A stretch of 64,000 nt of DNA, from assembly GCA_045594665.1 (NCBI GenBank), contig JAZNYX010000053.1, positions 5,747 through 69,746 of the forward strand, in the 5' to 3' direction. The notes beneath the pieces are model-generated. The model did no database searches. It had not been told where the DNA came from and worked only from the letters and a program-made list of their open reading frames with translations. The position numbers were made by a program, and so were the translations under genes. Below are positions 2,516 to 38,080 of the stretch, piece by piece. Position 1 is the stretch's first letter. Each line of letters begins with the position of its first letter. Source of the stretch: Clostridia bacterium (GTDB lineage: Bacteria > Bacillota > Clostridia > UMGS1883).

Positions 2516-2740
2516 CGGGATGTTAAAAATGCCCAGAACATTCGTTGGCGGTTTTATAATTTGAGATAACACTATTTTATAATAACAAGGTTTTCGGTAG
2601 AAATCCGCAAGACGGATTTCCGCTTTGATGCCAACGAATTACGAACAAACTTCACCTCTCGACGTACCCTCGTACGCCTTCGGGTAACCCACGGCAAGCC
2701 GTGGTTCAGTTTGTTCGTTCTGAACATTTTTTCCTATCCC
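2516..2740 (+). repeat. Structured intergenic repeat, copy 1 (subfamily A)
   Basis: 5' GGGATGTTAAAAATG and 3' TTTTTTCCTATCCC termini. Internal hairpin GAAATCCG/CGGATTTC. 3' domain GAACAAACTTCACCTCTCG...GGTTCAGTTTGTTC is shared with the copies at 29834, 33604 and 36671. Confidence 0.85.
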
Positions 2741-2841
2741 TTAAATTCATAAAACTAAATTGTCATTCTGAGGAGCTTGCTACGAAGAATCTCTTAGAAT
2801 GACAATTTCACATTTAAAACTTTTTAATCGAGGATGTTACT

Positions 2842-4152: not shown

Positions 4153-4158
4153 ACTAAA

Positions 4159-4191
4159 AATAATGCTGTGACAATGTGTCACAGCATTATT
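4159..4191. terminator. Hairpin terminator between convergent trmFO and membrane-protein gene
   Basis: Perfect 15-bp stem AATAATGCTGTGACA / TGTCACAGCATTATT with a 3-nt loop, starting 7 nt after the trmFO stop. Confidence 0.6.
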
Positions 4192-4195
4192 TAAA

Positions 4196-5772: not shown

Positions 5773-5796
5773 TAAAAATTTACATAGAGCAAATAC

Positions 5797-5843
5797 AAAA
5801 AAAGCTACACAATGGGGACTGTCCCCATTGTGTAGCTTTTTTT
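5797..5843. terminator. Bidirectional intrinsic terminator
   Basis: AAAAAAAGCTACACAATGGGGA / TCCCCATTGTGTAGCTTTTTTT, with A-run and T-run flanks, between convergent genes. Confidence 0.75.
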
Positions 5844-5844
5844 G

Positions 5845-6168
5845 TTAGCGGTTTTGGTAGTACGTTTTCAATAGTTGATATATAGTTTTAATTTCCGGAA
5901 CCGACAAATGCTCCAGAATATTTTTAATTTCAAGAATGTCTGAATGTTCTTCTTCGGAAACAATTTTTTTCCTATTGTCTGTGAGTCCTAAAATATAGTC
6001 AACGGAAACGTTAAGCTCTTTTCCTATATTATAGAGTGTCTGTACTGCAGGGGCTTTTCTTCCGGCTTCAATTTCCCACAAAAAATTCCTAGAGATTCCT
6101 ATATTTTCTGAAAGCTTTTCAAGTGTTAATTTCTTTTGTGTACGTATAGCTTTTATTCTCATTCCCAT
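5845..6168 (-). CDS. XRE-family helix-turn-helix transcriptional regulator
   Basis: IKAIRTQKKLTLEKLSENIGISRNFLWEIEAGRK is an HTH_3 motif. The GGTGGA RBS favours the internal ATG 6168 over the track start 6192. Confidence 0.8.
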   Translation of the reverse strand: MGMRIKAIRTQKKLTLEKLSENIGISRNFLWEIEAGRKAPAVQTLYNIGKELNVSVDYILGLTDNRKKIVSEEEHSDILEIKNILEHLSVPEIKTIYQLLKTYYQNR

Positions 6169-6292: not shown

Positions 6293-6345
6293 GTGTAGGA
6301 CGCTTGAGAAAGCTGTCGAATAAATTAAAATTAGGAGAGATACAT

Positions 6346-7020
6346 ATGAGAAAAACAATTAAAACACTATCCGCACTGATATTGGCTTTTTTACTGATGT
6401 TTTCCTTTGCTGCCTGTGAAAAGAATGCTGAAGTAAAAGAAAGTGCCGGGGAGAATATTGCAGAAAAAGATAAAGAAACCGTGGAAGAGGTTGTAGAAGA
6501 TTTCTTTGATGCTTACACCGAAATGGACTTTGAAAAGGCAACTGAATTTACGAAAAGAAATTCTGATGCTTATGACGTTATCAAAGACATAATAGCGAAT
6601 ATGCCTTTTGATGAAATTGCCGATGAAAGTCCCGAAATGGCTGACGCATTTGAAGAAATGATAAAGGATGTATTTGGTGCAGTAGAAGTTAATATTGAAG
6701 AAATAAAGGTGGACGGAGATAAAGCCGAGGTAATTTATGAAACAAATGCAGGGGCAATAGAGGACATTTTCGAGACATTTGAAGAAGAGGGAGATGCAAG
6801 ACTTGAGGCAAGCCTTGAAAGCATAAGCGAGGAAGACCTTGCCGAATTAGCGTTGTTGTCCGAAGAGGAACAGTTTCAGTTCGGAATGGAGCTTGCCCTT
6901 GAAGTAATGGAGGAGCTTTTTGACGAAATGATTGAAGAATTTAACGATGCAGATTTGGAAGAAGCAACCATAAAGCTTGAAAAAGACGGAAGCGACTGGG
7001 AAATTACTGAAATGGAATAA
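6346..7020 (+). CDS. Acidic lipoprotein, function unknown
   Basis: Signal peptide with lipobox (LMFSFAAC). The mature part is very Glu/Asp rich. AGGAGA RBS lies before ATG 6346. Confidence 0.7.
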   Translation: MRKTIKTLSALILAFLLMFSFAACEKNAEVKESAGENIAEKDKETVEEVVEDFFDAYTEMDFEKATEFTKRNSDAYDVIKDIIANMPFDEIADESPEMADAFEEMIKDVFGAVEVNIEEIKVDGDKAEVIYETNAGAIEDIFETFEEEGDARLEASLESISEEDLAELALLSEEEQFQFGMELALEVMEELFDEMIEEFNDADLEEATIKLEKDGSDWEITEME

Positions 7021-7056
7021 ATAAAGAAACGGATGCATTTGCATCCGTTTCTTTAT

Positions 7057-7818
7057 TTATTCCATAAGACCGATATTCCTCTCAAGGACACCTTTCCCCC
7101 TCCAGGAAAAGGCTCGGTTTTTATACTTTTTCATAAATCCACGGTTTGAAAGGCTTTCAAGCTCGGAGAGGGAAATAGAGTCAATTAAATCCTCGGTAAA
7201 CTCTTTCAGTGGTTTTGGTGTAATATTATTATGTGGGCAAACCCTCTGGCACGTGTCGCAACCAAATACAAGACCTGATTTTTTTAGTATGGCGATTTCA
7301 CTTTCCGTGAGGTCGCCTTTTTTCTGGCTTATATGAGAGGCACATTTGTTAATATCAAATTCTTCTCCCAAGGCACCGCCGGGGCAATTTTCTATGCACC
7401 GATTACAGCCCATACAGGCTTTTTGAAGCGGTGTGTCGGGGGCTAAATCTAAATCACATAAAATATATCCTATGAAAAAGTAGCTCCCGAAATCATCGTT
7501 AATAAGCATTTTGTTTTTTCCGTAGAACCCAAGCCCTGCCTCATAAGCTAACCTTCTGTCAACTTCGGGACCGATATCGGCAAAAATTTCGCACTCCGTA
7601 TCGGAGGCAAGGGTACGAATGAAGTCGCATACAGGGGAGAGCTTTTCCTTTATAACCAAGTGGTAATCAAGACCTCTTGCATATAAAGAAAGATTACCGT
7701 CACTCTCACCGCAGTAGTAGGGAAAAAGGCAGACTATTGCACTTTTTTCTCCATAGCGTGCAATGCCGCACTTTTCAATGCCAAGAGAATGTATGAAATT
7801 AAAAATTTTGTTTTTCAT
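7057..7818 (-). CDS. queG: Epoxyqueuosine reductase QueG-like 4Fe-4S protein
   Basis: Two ferredoxin-type clusters (CMGCNRCIENCP, CDTCQRVCP) follow a DUF1730-like N-terminus. Confidence 0.65.
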   Translation of the reverse strand: MKNKIFNFIHSLGIEKCGIARYGEKSAIVCLFPYYCGESDGNLSLYARGLDYHLVIKEKLSPVCDFIRTLASDTECEIFADIGPEVDRRLAYEAGLGFYGKNKMLINDDFGSYFFIGYILCDLDLAPDTPLQKACMGCNRCIENCPGGALGEEFDINKCASHISQKKGDLTESEIAILKKSGLVFGCDTCQRVCPHNNITPKPLKEFTEDLIDSISLSELESLSNRGFMKKYKNRAFSWRGKGVLERNIGLME

Positions 7819-28948: not shown

Positions 28949-28970
28949 AATATTTTAGGAGATGAATAGT

Positions 28971-29828
28971 ATGTTTTGTAAATCTTGCGGAACTCAGCTA
29001 AATGACGGTGCGAAGTTTTGTAAAAACTGCGGCACAGCCGTTACATATGTAAGCGAAAAGAAAACAGCCGTGGAAAACACTGAAAAGTTTACCCCCGTGC
29101 AGCCCCAGCCTCCCGTGCAGGAGGTGAAGCAGACTGTCTATACACCCCCTGTTCAGCCTGCGATACCGCAAAAGAAAAAGGGTACATCACCCGTTCTTTA
29201 TGTGGTGCTTGGTATTGTTACGGTGCTACTAATTGCCGCAATAGTTGTTTTGGTGATGACTGTTAATAAAAAGAACAATAATGGCGGCGATGATAAAGGC
29301 GGTGTTGTAGAAAAAGAATATGAAATTTTCCTCACGGTAGACGAATATCAGGAAGAAACAGATGAAAAGTCCTGTACATTAAGCGGTACTATATCAACCG
29401 AGAAGGAAAAGGCAACGCTCAGCATTAACGGACAGAAGATTACCACTGTATCGGAAGATGACGGGGAAAAGGTATGGTCAAAGAAGGTAAATCTTGAAGA
29501 AGGAACAAACTCTTTTGATATTGTGCTTTATACTAAAGACAACACAAAGACAAAAACCGAGAATGTGGAAATAGAATATAAAAAGCCTTTGCTTTACCCC
29601 GAGGGAACAGTTCTTATAAAAGCAGACCCCGACGGTGTTAATATAAGACCTACTCCCGAAATCAGCGAAGAGAGGGTAATGCTTATTCCGTACGACGATT
29701 TTCAGTCGCAGTTTATATGCCAGGGTGAAGAACATCTTGATGAGGAGGAATTTATCTGGTGTAAGGTAATGACTCCCGACGGCAAAATCGGCTGGGTTAG
29801 ATCGGACTTAATGAAACCGCTTCAATAA
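28971..29828 (+). CDS. Zinc-ribbon / TM / SH3b-like domain protein
   Basis: CKSCGTQLNDGAKFCKNCG zinc ribbon, Pro-rich linker, one TM segment, C-terminal GKIGWVRSDL SH3-like motif. Confidence 0.6.
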   Translation: MFCKSCGTQLNDGAKFCKNCGTAVTYVSEKKTAVENTEKFTPVQPQPPVQEVKQTVYTPPVQPAIPQKKKGTSPVLYVVLGIVTVLLIAAIVVLVMTVNKKNNNGGDDKGGVVEKEYEIFLTVDEYQEETDEKSCTLSGTISTEKEKATLSINGQKITTVSEDDGEKVWSKKVNLEEGTNSFDIVLYTKDNTKTKTENVEIEYKKPLLYPEGTVLIKADPDGVNIRPTPEISEERVMLIPYDDFQSQFICQGEEHLDEEEFIWCKVMTPDGKIGWVRSDLMKPLQ

Positions 29829-29833
29829 AAAGT

Positions 29834-30063
29834 GGGGATGTTAAAAATGTCCAGACCGCAAAAAGGCAACTTAAAAGAAAATTTAGATAGCATAAATAAT
29901 AAATAATACATTACTGTTGAAAAATCGTATTTATACGATTTTTCTTCTTTTTTAAGCCTTTTTGCTATGAACAAACTTCACCTCTCGCTGTATACACATA
30001 CAGCTTCGGGAAAGCCCCTTCGGGGTTCAGTTTGTCCATTCTGAAGCATTTTTTCCTATCCCC
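29834..30063 (+). repeat. Structured intergenic repeat, copy 2 (subfamily B)
   Basis: GGGGATGTTAAAAATG ... TTTTTTCCTATCCCC. Stems GCAAAAAGGC/GCCTTTTTGC, GAAAAATCGTAT/ATACGATTTTTC, CTGTAT/ATACAG and CCCC-TTCG-GGGG. Confidence 0.85.
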
Positions 30064-30146
30064 ACGTAAAGGCGATATAAAAAACAGACTTTTTTATATC
30101 AAATTCCTTCATTTCGAATTTTGAACTTCGCATTTTGAACTATCCA

Positions 30147-33058: not shown

Positions 33059-33595
33059 ATGAATTATAAAGAATATTTAGTAAAAAGAAAGTTAGGCGCC
33101 GCAGAAATATTGGTTACGGTTATGCTTTATTTCGCAGCGTTTATGTTGGCTCTTTGCTGCCTTTATTATCTGCGTATGCTTGGCGGCATTGAAAGTTTAT
33201 TGGCAGCGGGTGCATTTTACCTGGCGTATATTCTCGCATCCAGACTCAAGAAAGAATTTGAGTATATAATTGTTGAAGACTCGGTAGATATTGATGTCAT
33301 TTTCAATGCATCAAAAAGAAAAAATCTGATATCTTTTTCCGTAAAGCAAATTGAGGTAATGGCGGCAATAAATGATGCGAAATATAATAGCCGTCTTAAG
33401 GAACAATTTGATAAGGTTATAGATGCTTCCACATGGAAAAAAGGTGCCGTAGTATATTTCACCATTCTTGAAAATAAGGGACAAAAGACAATTGTAAAGT
33501 TCGAACCGTCTTTAGCATGTCTGGAATATATGAAGAAATATGCTCCCGACAAAATTCACATAAGCACTGCGGCAGACGATAACGAATTTGAATAA
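33059..33595 (+). CDS. Hypothetical two-TM membrane protein
   Basis: GGAGA RBS and two N-terminal hydrophobic helices. No motif recognised. Confidence 0.5.
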   Translation: MNYKEYLVKRKLGAAEILVTVMLYFAAFMLALCCLYYLRMLGGIESLLAAGAFYLAYILASRLKKEFEYIIVEDSVDIDVIFNASKRKNLISFSVKQIEVMAAINDAKYNSRLKEQFDKVIDASTWKKGAVVYFTILENKGQKTIVKFEPSLACLEYMKKYAPDKIHISTAADDNEFE

Positions 33596-33603
33596 AACAT
33601 ATT

Positions 33604-33836
33604 GGGGATGTTAAAAAACTCCGGATCGCAAAAAGGCAGAAATAAAGTAATTTATGAAAAGCATAAAAGCTAAAGAAAGCTGTATTTTGGTTGAAAAATC
33701 TCAGTATACTCGATTTTTCCCCATTTTAAGCCTTTTTGCTACGAACAAACTTCACCTCTCGCTGTATACACATACAGCTTCGGGCACACCCCTTCGGGGT
33801 TCAGTTTGTCCGTTCTGAAGCTTTTTTCCTATCCCC
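33604..33836 (+). repeat. Structured intergenic repeat, copy 3 (subfamily B)
   Basis: Termini and 3' domain are near-identical to copy 2. Stem GCAAAAAGGC (33628-33637) / GCCTTTTTGC (33730-33739). Confidence 0.85.
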
Positions 33837-33877
33837 AAGAAAGAGGGGTGTAAAGCTTTTTTACACCCCTCTTTCTT
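33837..33877. other. Perfect 18-bp hairpin abutting repeat copy 3
   Basis: AAGAAAGAGGGGTGTAAA / TTTACACCCCTCTTTCTT with a 5-nt loop. No T-run on either side of the 3' arm. Confidence 0.6.
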
Positions 33878-36616: not shown

Positions 36617-36670
36617 ATGCAAAATTAATGAAGAGGGTGCAAAAAATCATTTTTTGCACCCTCTTCATTT

Positions 36671-36907
36671 GGGGATGGAAAAAATAGTGCAGAACGGACA
36701 AACTGAGCCACGGCTTGCCGTGGGTTACCCGAAGGCGTACGCGGGTACGTCGAGAGGTGAAGTTTGTTCGTAGTTCATTGGCATAAAAAAGAGGAAATCC
36801 GTAAAATTTACGGATTTCCACCAAAAACCATATTTTCAAGAATTTTTTTAGTTTTAGAAATACATATTGAGAGCCAATGAACGGTCGGTGCTGCTTTTTG
36901 CATCCCC
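36671..36907 (-). repeat. Structured intergenic repeat, copy 4 (subfamily A, inverted)
   Basis: The reverse complement reads GGGGATGCAAAAAGC ... TTTTTTCCATCCCC. Stems GTTCATTGGC/GCCAATGAAC, GGAAATCCGTAAA/TTTACGGATTTCC, CGTAC/GTACG and CCACGG/CCGTGG. Confidence 0.85.
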
Positions 36908-38080
36908 TTACATATGTTCGGATACAAATTCGCCAATTCTTTCCAGTGCTTTTTCTATGTTTTTAATGCTATAGGCATAACTGCAGCGGATAAAGCCTTC
37001 GCCGCTTTCGCCAAAGGCTGTGCCGGGTACTACGGCTACCTTTTTTTCATAAAGGAGCTTTGTGGCAAATTCCTCGCTTGTAAGTCCCGTGGCACTTATA
37101 TTGGGAAATACGTAGAACGCACCAAGGGGTTCAAAGCAGCTAAGTCCCATTTCGCGAAAGCCGTTTACCATAACACGGCGGCGATGGTCGTATTCACTAC
37201 GCATGTATTCGACCTCGTCATCACAGCTTCGCATTGCCTCAATAGCCGCATACTGGCTAGTGGTGGGGGCACACATAATTGCGTACTGATGAATTTTCGT
37301 CATCTGCTTTATAACAGGTTCGGGACCACAGGCATAGCCGAGCCTCCAACCCGTCATTGCAAATGCCTTACTAAAGCCGTTTACGGTTACTGTCCTTTCC
37401 CACATATCATCTATTGCCGCAAAGGGAACATGGGGATTTCCCGTATAATTAAGCTCGCCGTAAATTTCGTCCGAAAGAACAAAAAGATTATGCTCTTTTA
37501 CAATCTTTGCGATTTTTTCAAGATCCTCCTTTTCCATTACAGCCCCTGTGGGGTTATTGGGGAATGGAAGAATAAGAAGCTTTGACTTAGGTGTGATTTT
37601 TTCAAGGAGCTTTTCGGCAGTCAGCTTGAAATTATCCTTTTCCTCTGTCTGAATAGTAACGGGAGTTCCCCCTGCCATAATAGTGCAGGGCTTGTAGCAA
37701 ACGAAGCAGGGTTCGGGAATCAGCACCTCATCCCCGGGAGAAATTATTGCACGTATAAGAAGGTCAATAGCTTCGCTTCCGCCTACGGTAACAAGAGTCT
37801 CCGTTTTGGGATTGTAGCGTAGATTATACTTTCGCATCAAATAGCTGCAAATCTCGCTTCTAAGCTCTAACAGACCGCTGTTTGCACTGTAGTGGGTGCG
37901 TCCCTTTTCCAAGGAATAAATACCTGCCTCCCTGACTGCCCATGGGGTTACAAAGTCAGGCTCGCCTACGCCTAAGGATATTACGTCCTTCATCTCGGCA
38001 GCCACATCAAAAAATTTTCGGATGCCGCTGGGTGCAAGGGAAGAAATGTTTTCCGATATTAGTTTTGAATAATCTATCAT
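36908..38080 (-). CDS. Class I/II pyridoxal-phosphate aminotransferase
   Basis: 390 aa. SKAFAMTGWRLGY carries the PLP lysine. NPTG motif present. Confidence 0.85.
   Translation of the reverse strand: MIDYSKLISENISSLAPSGIRKFFDVAAEMKDVISLGVGEPDFVTPWAVREAGIYSLEKGRTHYSANSGLLELRSEICSYLMRKYNLRYNPKTETLVTVGGSEAIDLLIRAIISPGDEVLIPEPCFVCYKPCTIMAGGTPVTIQTEEKDNFKLTAEKLLEKITPKSKLLILPFPNNPTGAVMEKEDLEKIAKIVKEHNLFVLSDEIYGELNYTGNPHVPFAAIDDMWERTVTVNGFSKAFAMTGWRLGYACGPEPVIKQMTKIHQYAIMCAPTTSQYAAIEAMRSCDDEVEYMRSEYDHRRRVMVNGFREMGLSCFEPLGAFYVFPNISATGLTSEEFATKLLYEKKVAVVPGTAFGESGEGFIRCSYAYSIKNIEKALERIGEFVSEHM

Follow-up and report, generated by a model that had tools for sequence, protein, structure and literature searches.

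The stretch of DNA analysed here, 64,000 nt of contig JAZNYX010000053.1 from a Clostridia bacterium (assembly GCA_045594665.1; hereafter the window), contains four copies of a structured intergenic element of about 225-240 nt, or about 275-290 nt when a trailing hairpin is included. We give roughly even chances to the reading that the element is a non-coding, non-autonomous mobile module that fills the terminator niche after stop codons in a group of uncultured Clostridia of the gut, where it probably acts as a portable transcript-end module. This reading draws on a branched fold whose helices covary, on the placement and orientation of the copies relative to neighbouring genes, on gains and losses between close relatives, and on mosaic copies.

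An initial annotation made from the letters of the window had listed four full copies of an unassigned repeat, and all four are present. The 19-mer GAACAAACTTCACCTCTCG has exactly four matches in the window against 0.01 expected by chance, and a hidden Markov model (HMM) of the 3' half, run with nhmmer, returned the same four copies with E values of 8e-27 to 3e-26 (next best, E 0.2). They are referred to as c1 (2517..2740, +), directly 3' of the topA stop codon (2511-2513); c2 (29834..30063, +), 5 nt after the stop of a zinc-ribbon protein gene (28962..29828); c3 (33604..33836, +), 8 nt after the stop of a DUF6106 gene (33059..33595); and c4 (36671..36907, -), which starts at the first base after the TAA of an aminotransferase gene (36908..38080, -). 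The limits first given for c1 needed correction, as it starts at 2517 with GGGATG (three G) and ends in TATCCC rather than running from GGGG to CCCC. The extrapolation of one copy per ~16 kb to the whole genome is not supportable, since three of the four copies lie within 7 kb.

Family members were gathered by exact matches to the 19-mer in a species-representative genome collection (L-numbers below are labels of collected or related loci). At least 115 stretches from at least 63 assemblies matched, which makes this a dispersed family and not a local duplication. Among the matches listed, all carriers are metagenome-assembled genomes (MAGs) of uncultured Clostridia, sampled from ruminants, humans, birds and digesters, and several MAGs give at least 4 or 5 loci each. 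Some are named Congzhengia or Ructibacterium, both of which NCBI places in Oscillospiraceae. A profile search of the collected DNA gave at least 138 copies, 18 of them divergent within the 19-mer. Curated collections of plasmids and phages gave no match to the element, and one IMG/VR contig with two copies seems, from its open reading frames (ORFs), to be ordinary chromosomal DNA; a plasmid or phage origin was dropped. The covariance models of Rfam 15 gave no match at gathering score in the window and six loci, and none at E<=10 on c2. A full-text literature search with the core sequence returned unrelated eukaryotic papers only, and keyword searches found nothing relevant. The element is apparently undescribed, as far as the databases available to this analysis reach. 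The initial annotation had named two outcomes that would overturn it, a match to a described element and a lack of further copies, and neither came about.

A covarying three-way junction

The fold was examined in an alignment of 59 trimmed copies, made with MAFFT and not fitted to any structure. Element ends were set by anchoring on a 10-nt complementarity (P2) around the variable part, and divergent copies were found with an nhmmer profile. In 5' to 3' order on the strand of the upstream gene, the element consists of a head, the first strand of P2, a spacer, hairpin P3, the P2 partner, the core, the 3' strand of P1 and, in many copies, a trailing hairpin, T2. In the outer helix P1, whose 5' strand is the head, an outer G-rich segment is followed by an asymmetric internal loop, which is conserved and includes a GT(A/T/G)N tetranucleotide, then by a segment of A-run against T-run and, at the junction, by CAGA/TCTG. 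P2 has 10 bp, and its loop carries a 40-90-nt AT-rich spacer together with P3. P4, of about 10 bp, surrounds hairpin P5 and, where present, P6, which varies in length. The three helices P1, P2 and P4 come together at a tight three-way junction.

The covariation is very strong. Pairing is kept in 96.1% of alignment cells compared with 82.0% in shuffles, both sides have changed in 29 of 41 pairs, and the covariation score is 0.381 against 0.132 in shuffles, none of 500 of which scored as high; 3' partners that were slid out of register scored 0.04-0.07. All ten pairs of P2 and all seven of P3 covary. P4 is invariant in the set gathered by the 19-mer and covaries in divergent copies, for example from AACAAACT/AGTTTGT to CACGAACT/AGTTCGTG. 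The ends of P1 vary in step between subfamilies (GGGGATG/CATCCCC, GGGCTG/CAGCCC, GAGAGTGCAG/CTGCACTCTC, CCGCGCG/CGCGCGG), the general form being GGGNYG...CRNCCC, and P1 strands of the same copy pair better than non-cognate ones (-9.97 vs -7.3 kcal/mol). The terminal inverted repeat (TIR) proposed for the ends therefore stands as far as the ends do pair, but they form the outer helix of a branched covarying fold and not a TIR of the transposase type: the arms differ by subfamily with matched changes, and it is the asymmetric internal loop that is conserved. The region behind the 5' end, described as unrelated between copies, is so only in part, as it begins with the 10-nt P2 strand, which is conserved by pairing and has its partner just before the 3' domain.

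Conservation of sequence is uneven across the fold. Mean pairwise identity among the 59 copies is 0.29 in the spacer, 0.37 in P6 and about 0.6 in the head, P2 and the P1 3' strand, and it reaches 0.83 in joining strand J5/6 and 0.92 in J6/4 with the P4 3' strand, both taken outside the 19-mer. Large insertions are tolerated at P5 and P6: about 200 nt lie at the P5 tip in L093 (308-505) and about 270 nt at the P6 tip in L003 (4270-4545), the latter with inverted ends of its own (GGCATAATAC...GCATTATGCC), in copies that are otherwise intact. The conserved junction suggests a specific partner, which may serve either the element or the host.

All parts of the fold can be placed in the window copies, which give z-scores of -5.7 to -8.1 when folded singly as RNA. 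In c1 (+), the head (2517..2539) comprises GGGATG (P1a), the A-run (P1b) and CAGAAC (P1c), and is followed by P2 strand ATTCGTTGGC (2540..2549), complementary at 10 of 10 positions to GCCAACGAAT (2630..2639). P3 (2596..2623) has a weak T-run behind it; the core, with P4 around P5 and P6 and the conserved joining strands, spans 2641..2718, and the P1 3' strand 2719..2740. A hairpin that is not head-like follows (2757..2808), in a stretch of ~100 additional nt between c1 and trmFO with no counterpart in relatives. In c2 (+), the head (29834..29857), P2 strand GCAAAAAGGC (29858..29867), P3 followed by TTCTTTTTT (29919..29944), P2 partner GCCTTTTTGC (29956..29965), core (29967..30039) and P1 3' strand (30040..30063) are followed by a hairpin, GATATAAAAAA/TTTTTTATATC (30074..30100), whose 5' arm resembles the head. 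The corresponding parts of c3 (+) are the head (33604..33627), P2 (33628..33637 with 33730..33739), P3 (33693..33719), the core (33741..33813) and the P1 3' strand (33814..33836), with a perfect T2 of 18 bp directly behind (33837..33877), the 5' arm of which (GGGGTGTAAAG) repeats the head. On the reverse strand, c4 runs from its head (36883..36907) through P2 strand GTTCATTGGC (36873..36882), P3 and TCTTTTTTAT (36793..36819), P2 partner GCCAATGAAC (36773..36782) and core (36694..36771) to the P1 3' strand (36671..36693) and a perfect, terminator-like T2 of 20 bp (36627..36669). The copies pair off, c1 with c4 and c2 with c3, and matched changes in several helices separate the two pairs. TTCGAA- and GAACTTCG-rich runs (e.g. 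AAATTCCTTCATTTCGAATTTTGAACTTCGCATTTTGAAC) stand after copies in the window (30101-30146) and in L008, L012/L020 and L070.

The element has no conserved ORF, as had been noted: all three reverse-strand frames are interrupted in most of the 77 copies examined, and the element strand of the four window copies, by reading, holds only short unrelated ORFs from the ATG of GGGATG. A Shine-Dalgarno-like GAGAGGTGA with TTG behind it on the reverse strand, and a 53-codon open frame in c2, were considered as coding potential, but every frame is broken across the 77 copies. Two resemblances to known sites were dropped as well. The likeness of GGGGCTGTAGCAAA to the IS6/IS26-type TIR GGCACTGTTGCAAA occurs in one subfamily only and in an arm that covaries, and ATGTTAAA in the head, which resembles the XerD arm of a dif/Xer site, is absent in other subfamilies, and the hairpin loops range from 2 to 7 nt.

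The helices are close to pure Watson-Crick pairing, with 18 G.U, 34 A.C and 59 other mismatches among 2382 cells on the element strand, and a single P5 position accounts for 18 of the 34 A.C cells. This purity is what would be expected if the fold were selected as DNA, in the manner of REP/REPIN, of palindrome-associated transposable elements (PATEs) of the IS200/IS605 type or of attC sites, with folded single-stranded DNA (ssDNA) recognised and moved by a structure-specific enzyme from another place in the genome, such as a HUH Y1 transposase (RAYT) or a tyrosine recombinase, and any effects on transcripts being secondary; we consider this explanation unlikely overall. As a test of strand and of RNA against DNA, the comparison of G.U with A.C is ambiguous; if most mismatches are neutral decay after insertion, it cannot separate the two. 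A proposed short helix beside P5 (CCU/GGG) speaks against selection as DNA, in that it keeps U.G on the element strand and has C-G in variants.

Placement behind stop codons and turnover between relatives

The copies have a strict relation to the gene on their 5' side. This left neighbour is co-oriented with the element in 85 copies and opposite in 13, and about 69 of these 85 genes have their end at -10 to +23 nt relative to the element 5' end. The stop codon mostly stands 22-33 nt upstream of P2, that is, 0-9 nt before GGG, and in about 12 copies it lies inside the head as TGTAA, TGTGA or GTTAA (for example at the secA end in L089). Stop codons, of all three kinds, are all that the 5' flanks share, and the upstream genes are unrelated among copies (topA, secA, an aminotransferase, DUF6106). 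On the other side, greedy gene calls around each copy gave 41 convergent, 27 co-directional sense, 10 co-directional antisense and 1 divergent context, divergent promoter regions being avoided, and a cruder ORF call gave 73 convergent against 35 other downstream genes; c2 and c4 both face convergent genes. Compared with the majority gene strand of the locus, which serves as a proxy for replication direction, 28 copies are co-oriented, 17 are anti-oriented and 18 lie in mixed loci.

This placement is that of a terminator. In a terminator scan, P3 of c2 and c4 and T2 of c4 scored as intrinsic terminators, on the element strand only, and a perfect hairpin of at least 10 bp begins within ~12 nt downstream in 31 of ~100 copies examined. 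Terminators that overlap stop codons are common in the window genome, and abutment to the stop codon is thus expected of an element that occupies a terminator site. Heads and many plain terminators of the clade seem to share an arm of the type GGNNTGT(A/G)NNAAAA. Several hairpins elsewhere in the window are of related interest. A perfect 16-bp hairpin (AAATAATGCTGTGACA-ATG-TGTCACAGCATTATTT, 4158-4192) stands 5 nt after the trmFO stop and is kept in place in L208; its arm GCTGTGACA matches the head of another subfamily (GGGACTGTGACAAAATG in L072). Very long perfect intergenic palindromes with 24-25-bp stems lie at 5795-5845 and 7012-7065, and the second of these holds the stop codons of both convergent ORFs around it (6304..7020, +, and 7057..7818, -).

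The closeness of stop codon and head also bears on a different explanation, namely that the element is a cis-regulatory RNA of the host, a terminator made conditional by the sensing of translation or of a ligand. The P1 3' strand would pair either with the head, in which case the junction closes, T2 forms and transcription terminates, or with the 5' arm of T2, which would lead to antitermination and read-through; a ribosome at the stop codon 0-9 nt upstream could mask the head, or a ligand in the junction could stabilise P1. Such a switch would fit the stop codons that abut or overlap the head, the conserved unpaired junction strands between covarying helices, which resemble an aptamer, and compensatory changes between orthologous copies. 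It would also fit repetition of the head, at 12 or more of 14 identical positions, in the downstream 60 nt of 24% of copies, compared with 4.5% of non-cognate pairs. Examples are c4, where the c4-specific head GGGGATGCAAAAA recurs in the 5' arm of T2 as GGGTGCAAAAAA, and L004, with 14-nt identity. Nevertheless, three quarters of the copies have no head-like T2, P3 is terminator-like in about half of them and lies upstream of the sensing strand, and the downstream gene is convergent in 41 of ~80 contexts (73 vs 35 by the cruder call), so that there is usually nothing to regulate. Copies also follow unrelated genes and turn over between close relatives, and we regard a host switch as quite unlikely.

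Comparison of the window loci with those of relatives bears on the gain and loss of copies. In all relatives with 86-96% identical TrmFO, topA and trmFO lie 0-6 nt apart, compared with 328 nt in the window, and the window TopA is three to seven codons shorter, with its stop codon at the c1 junction. It ends in ...CETNKK* (2500-2513), where relatives have Lys/Glu-rich tails (EKK* in L208, KEKGKE* in L212), and the DNA upstream of trmFO is new and includes an AGGA ribosome-binding site. Judged by these alignments, c1 is a gain, the insertion of which would have truncated TopA and supplied or created its stop codon. At the c2 site, relatives at 86% and 92% identity have only a 42-46-nt bidirectional terminator (AAAAAGGAATTCG...CGAATTCCTTTTT), of the same type as many P3 hairpins, where the window has 318 nt.

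At the c3 site, relatives at 93% identity (L197-L200) keep the flanks and carry a hairpin only, and relatives at 94% and 88% identity have an unrelated hairpin. A GGGG direct repeat flanks the stretch that the solo-hairpin allele lacks (33604..33844, +). The final 8 nt of this stretch, AAGAAAGA, pair with TCTTTCTT, which is left unpaired in the short allele; that allele therefore resembles what recombination of the head with the repeat downstream of it would produce. The element occurs in none of 80 related aminotransferase loci, in which the flanks of c4 are not conserved. The nearest relative found, MAG JAFTOF01, lacks c1, c2 and c3 and has copies elsewhere (L069, L074, L079, L089). By these comparisons, copies are gained and lost quickly between close relatives.

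A separate element in the same genomes has left a cleaner record. In L209 and L211 (2209-2518 in both), the terminator hairpin of trmFO has in its loop a sequence of ~279 nt with perfect 18-bp TIRs (AGCGGCGCTCACATAGGG...CCCTATGTGAGCGCCGCT), which is absent from L210 (2209-2240), a third assembly that encodes an identical TrmFO. This is, by sequence, a clean filled/empty pair for a loop-targeting MITE (a miniature transposable element with inverted repeats).

Several of these findings could also be claimed for a fold that is selected as ssDNA, including hairpins as the landing place, the insertion of other elements of the same genomes into hairpin loops, and the absence of a target-site duplication and of a sequence-conserved TIR. 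The direct head repeats around the c3 indel fit recombination-mediated integration or excision, and the half units and permuted arrangements described below can be read in the same way. However, IS200/IS605-type elements follow replication direction, and orientation here goes by the abutting gene (85 vs 13) and not by the majority gene strand (28/17/18); the terminator-like hairpins work only on the element strand, and no candidate enzyme gene was seen near any copy when ORFs were judged by eye without a domain search. We therefore favour a phenotype at the RNA level, given the strand-specific terminators and an orientation set by the abutting gene, with selection on ssDNA as the main rival.

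Half units, solo hairpins and exchange between copies

Some copies are followed by part or all of a second unit. Half units consist of a second head followed by a P2 strand, a spacer and a terminator, and in L015 and L096 the spacer of the half unit duplicates the first spacer; in other cases, a full second unit stands behind the first. The architecture is therefore of the form A-B-A', in which core B can form the same junction with the neighbour on either side, the order of the parts being permuted. In one subfamily the trailing hairpin moves along with the element to unrelated loci, and copies at unrelated loci share the whole unit including spacer and T2, two of them in one MAG (L027, L031). 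Head-type hairpins also occur alone, with a consensus of roughly GGNNTGTANNAAAA and its complement.

Four pairs of orthologous copies were found between species with 78-89% identical flanking coding sequences (CDS). Head, P2 and core are almost identical within pairs, the core being more conserved than the flanking CDS, and compensatory changes have arisen in situ, for L029/L085 in P2 and P1a and for L045/L089 in P3. Three of the four pairs have spacers that cannot be aligned, and P6 alternates between two forms that are typical of the family. This pattern, as far as alignments can tell, indicates exchange between copies or replacement of one copy by another.

Other loci contain rearranged or related units. 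At orthologous loci after a hydrogenase-like gene, L005 (3700-4330) has a divergent unit with core GAACAAACATACGCCTGCG...CTTTGGCTATGTTTGTCC and directly after it a second, standard core without a head of its own, the P2 partner of which lies inside the first unit in a crossing arrangement; L040 (2700-3010) has one standard unit and a fragment of the divergent core. Internally deleted derivatives, in which the head and a piece of P2 are joined to the 3' end, are found ~10 nt after the copy at 2284-2521 of L087 (TTTTTTCCTATTTTCC) and in L020 (299-332; CCTATCCCC). In L107 (6449-6570), a long near-perfect hairpin has head-type arms (GGGGCTGTAGCAAAATGTAT...ATACATTTTGCTACAGCC) and another inner hairpin in place of the core, so head-type arms frame other contents too. 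A G+C-rich motif of ~50 nt with two hairpins (e.g. GCCTCCCTTGCCTAAAGGGAGGGGGACCACCGAAGGTGGTGGAGGGAT in L018) occurs in spacers or flanks of L017, L018, L075, L086, L107, L113, L114 and L066; it had no Rfam match at gathering score and looks like a second small repeat family.

The permuted fold and the conserved core would also suit a stable RNA product, such as a small RNA derived from the 3' untranslated region or made from its own promoter, or a nuclease-resistant cap, that acts in trans as a protein sponge or base-pairing RNA or shields the upstream mRNA. The core with the following head and P2 strand would fold into the same junction, circularly permuted. The joining strands outside the 19-mer are 83-92% identical across 59 copies from many species, A-B-A' permits a self-contained fold that starts after P3, and one subfamily has an extended -10-like box, TGTTATAAT, just upstream of the core. 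A promoter before the core was sought, but no consistent -35/-10 was found in other subfamilies. A trans-acting RNA would also leave the stop-codon abutment and the dozens of copies per genome unexplained, and it sits poorly with rapid copy turnover. We consider such a product improbable and rank it last among the rivals of the mobile-module reading.

Comparison with known repeats and a possible mode of action

The element resembles the small structured intergenic repeats of other bacteria (Correia, ERIC, REP/REPIN and bcr), it fails the MITE tests of sequence-conserved TIRs and of a target-site duplication, its fold is unusually elaborate, and its niche is tied to stop codons. Correia elements (CREE/NEMIS) of Neisseria and ERIC/IRU of enterobacteria are non-coding, multi-copy intergenic repeats of ~100-160 bp without a transposase. 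Their ends pair into a long hairpin if co-transcribed, and they influence termination, processing and mRNA stability. The present element is likewise small, non-coding, multi-copy and intergenic, with pairing ends. Correia and ERIC have sequence-conserved TIRs, however, and Correia has a TA duplication, whereas here the arms covary without a target-site duplication, the interior is a branched three-way junction with a near-invariant core, and copies abut stop codons strictly and in sense orientation.

REP/BIME/REPIN sequences are extragenic palindromes at gene 3' ends or between convergent genes, often tandem or paired and without target-site duplication, and are thought to move as folded ssDNA. 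The head-type solo hairpins look REP-like, but a REP is a simple hairpin of 20-40 nt and a REPIN consists of two REPs in inverted orientation, whereas the present element has 225-290 nt, six helices and a conserved core, and no RAYT gene was seen near copies in ORFs inspected by eye without a domain search. The bcr1-bcr18 repeats of the Bacillus cereus group (100-400 bp), some of which are MITE-like and others of which have a conserved RNA structure with compensatory changes, are likewise structured intergenic repeats of Firmicutes. They have no sequence relation to the present family, for which Rfam gave nothing; bcr1 has a TTTAT duplication, and no bcr repeat is known to abut stop codons or replace terminators.

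Three further systems share its location or shape. The attC sites of integrons stand directly after an ORF stop in the same orientation, conserve structure over sequence, pair imperfectly and are recombined as folded ssDNA, and the present element shares the position, the sense orientation, the priority of structure and conserved unpaired bases. They are single hairpins of 57-141 nt with RYYYAAC/GTTRRRY core sites, in cassette arrays beside an integrase, whereas the ends here are GGGNYG...CRNCCC, copies are scattered on both strands, and no core sites, cassette array or adjacent intI were found. Class C group II introns are mobile and land at the intrinsic terminator hairpins of gene ends in sense orientation, which resembles the placement of this element, but group II introns, with six domains and at least 600 nt, start with GUGYG and are inserted behind the hairpin; the present element has ~230 nt and no Rfam intron match, and it sits before the hairpin or replaces it. 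In riboswitch attenuators, the 3' strand of a P1 that closes a junction pairs alternatively with the 5' arm of the following terminator. Here the junction is also closed by P1, but the alternative pairing exists in a minority of copies only, and copies lie at gene 3' ends behind unrelated genes in multiple copies, mostly before convergent genes, rather than upstream of a co-oriented gene (41 convergent vs 27 co-directional). Neither a fixed tetra- or pentanucleotide 5' target nor replication-strand orientation, the latter judged by proxy only, links the element to IS200/IS605-derived PATEs. The properties of an intrinsic terminator belong to parts of some copies (P3 of c2 and c4, T2 of c4) and not to the whole element, and neither an Rfam family nor a protein or small ORF accounts for it.

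A number of observations weigh against a mobile terminator module. The hairpin and T-rich run reported for the centre of each copy correspond to P3, but only 32 of the 59 aligned copies have P3 with a U-tract, so that "terminator cassette" is not true of every copy; T2 is head-like in only about a quarter. G.U is not enriched over A.C, which does not favour selection on the element-strand RNA, and retention of orthologous copies with compensatory changes also fits a host function. The insertions are not clean: at c1, topA is shortened and ~100 nt of additional DNA are present, and at c2 the whole spacer has been replaced. No target-site duplication was found at the four window copies, as the initial annotation had noted, or in the filled/empty comparisons, the GGGG/head repeat at c3 excepted, and neither the 5' flanks nor the filled/empty sites contain a conserved flanking target sequence, so that nothing points to a known transposition chemistry. 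No transposase or recombinase was seen near copies among 717 ORFs of 115 8-kb loci, which were clustered and judged by eye without a domain search. An autonomous partner element was sought in the same way and not found, the recurrent neighbour families looking like housekeeping genes by eye (ABC-transporter-like, AraC-like and similar), and no head with an ORF but without a nearby core was found in the collected loci. Finally, gathering by an exact word inflates the conservation of the 19-mer itself, though not conservation elsewhere.

If the element is a mobile module of this kind, the cassette would land at a gene 3' end in sense orientation, where it would displace the resident terminator or split abutting genes. 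It would then be transcribed with the upstream gene and fold into the closed three-way junction, and the transcript would end at P3 and/or T2. It would be tolerated only at a gene end and in sense orientation, because it is proposed to be co-transcribed and to end the transcript there. A cis structure for copying by machinery encoded in trans may be provided by the conserved fold together with the almost invariant joining strands of the core. Copies could be lost by recombination of the head with a downstream repeat, leaving a solo hairpin, and could swap segments among themselves.

A bolder proposal is that the near-invariant junction core is an active RNA, either a new small ribozyme or a fold that specifically binds a protein or the ribosome. 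With it, the cassette might copy itself by way of a transcript that runs from GGG to the end of the terminator, or the formation of transcript ends might be coupled to the termination of translation at the adjoining stop codon. We hold this to be very unlikely. If it were true, what looks like a passive repeat would be a portable gene end that propagates itself.

The mobile-module reading, if true, would mean that many transcription units in a clade of abundant but uncultured gut Clostridia end in an elaborately folded mobile cassette and not in a plain hairpin. For annotation, blocks of 230-290 nt would account for oversized 3' intergenic regions and shortened C-termini in these genomes, and for genome evolution, gene ends would turn over between species that are 90-96% identical in protein. 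Six covarying helices around a near-invariant junction, with no Rfam match, make the element a candidate for structure probing and a search for its partner. As mobile DNA, a repeat without TIR, target-site duplication or nearby enzyme that is found at terminators by stop codons may represent a mobility route not yet described in Firmicutes.

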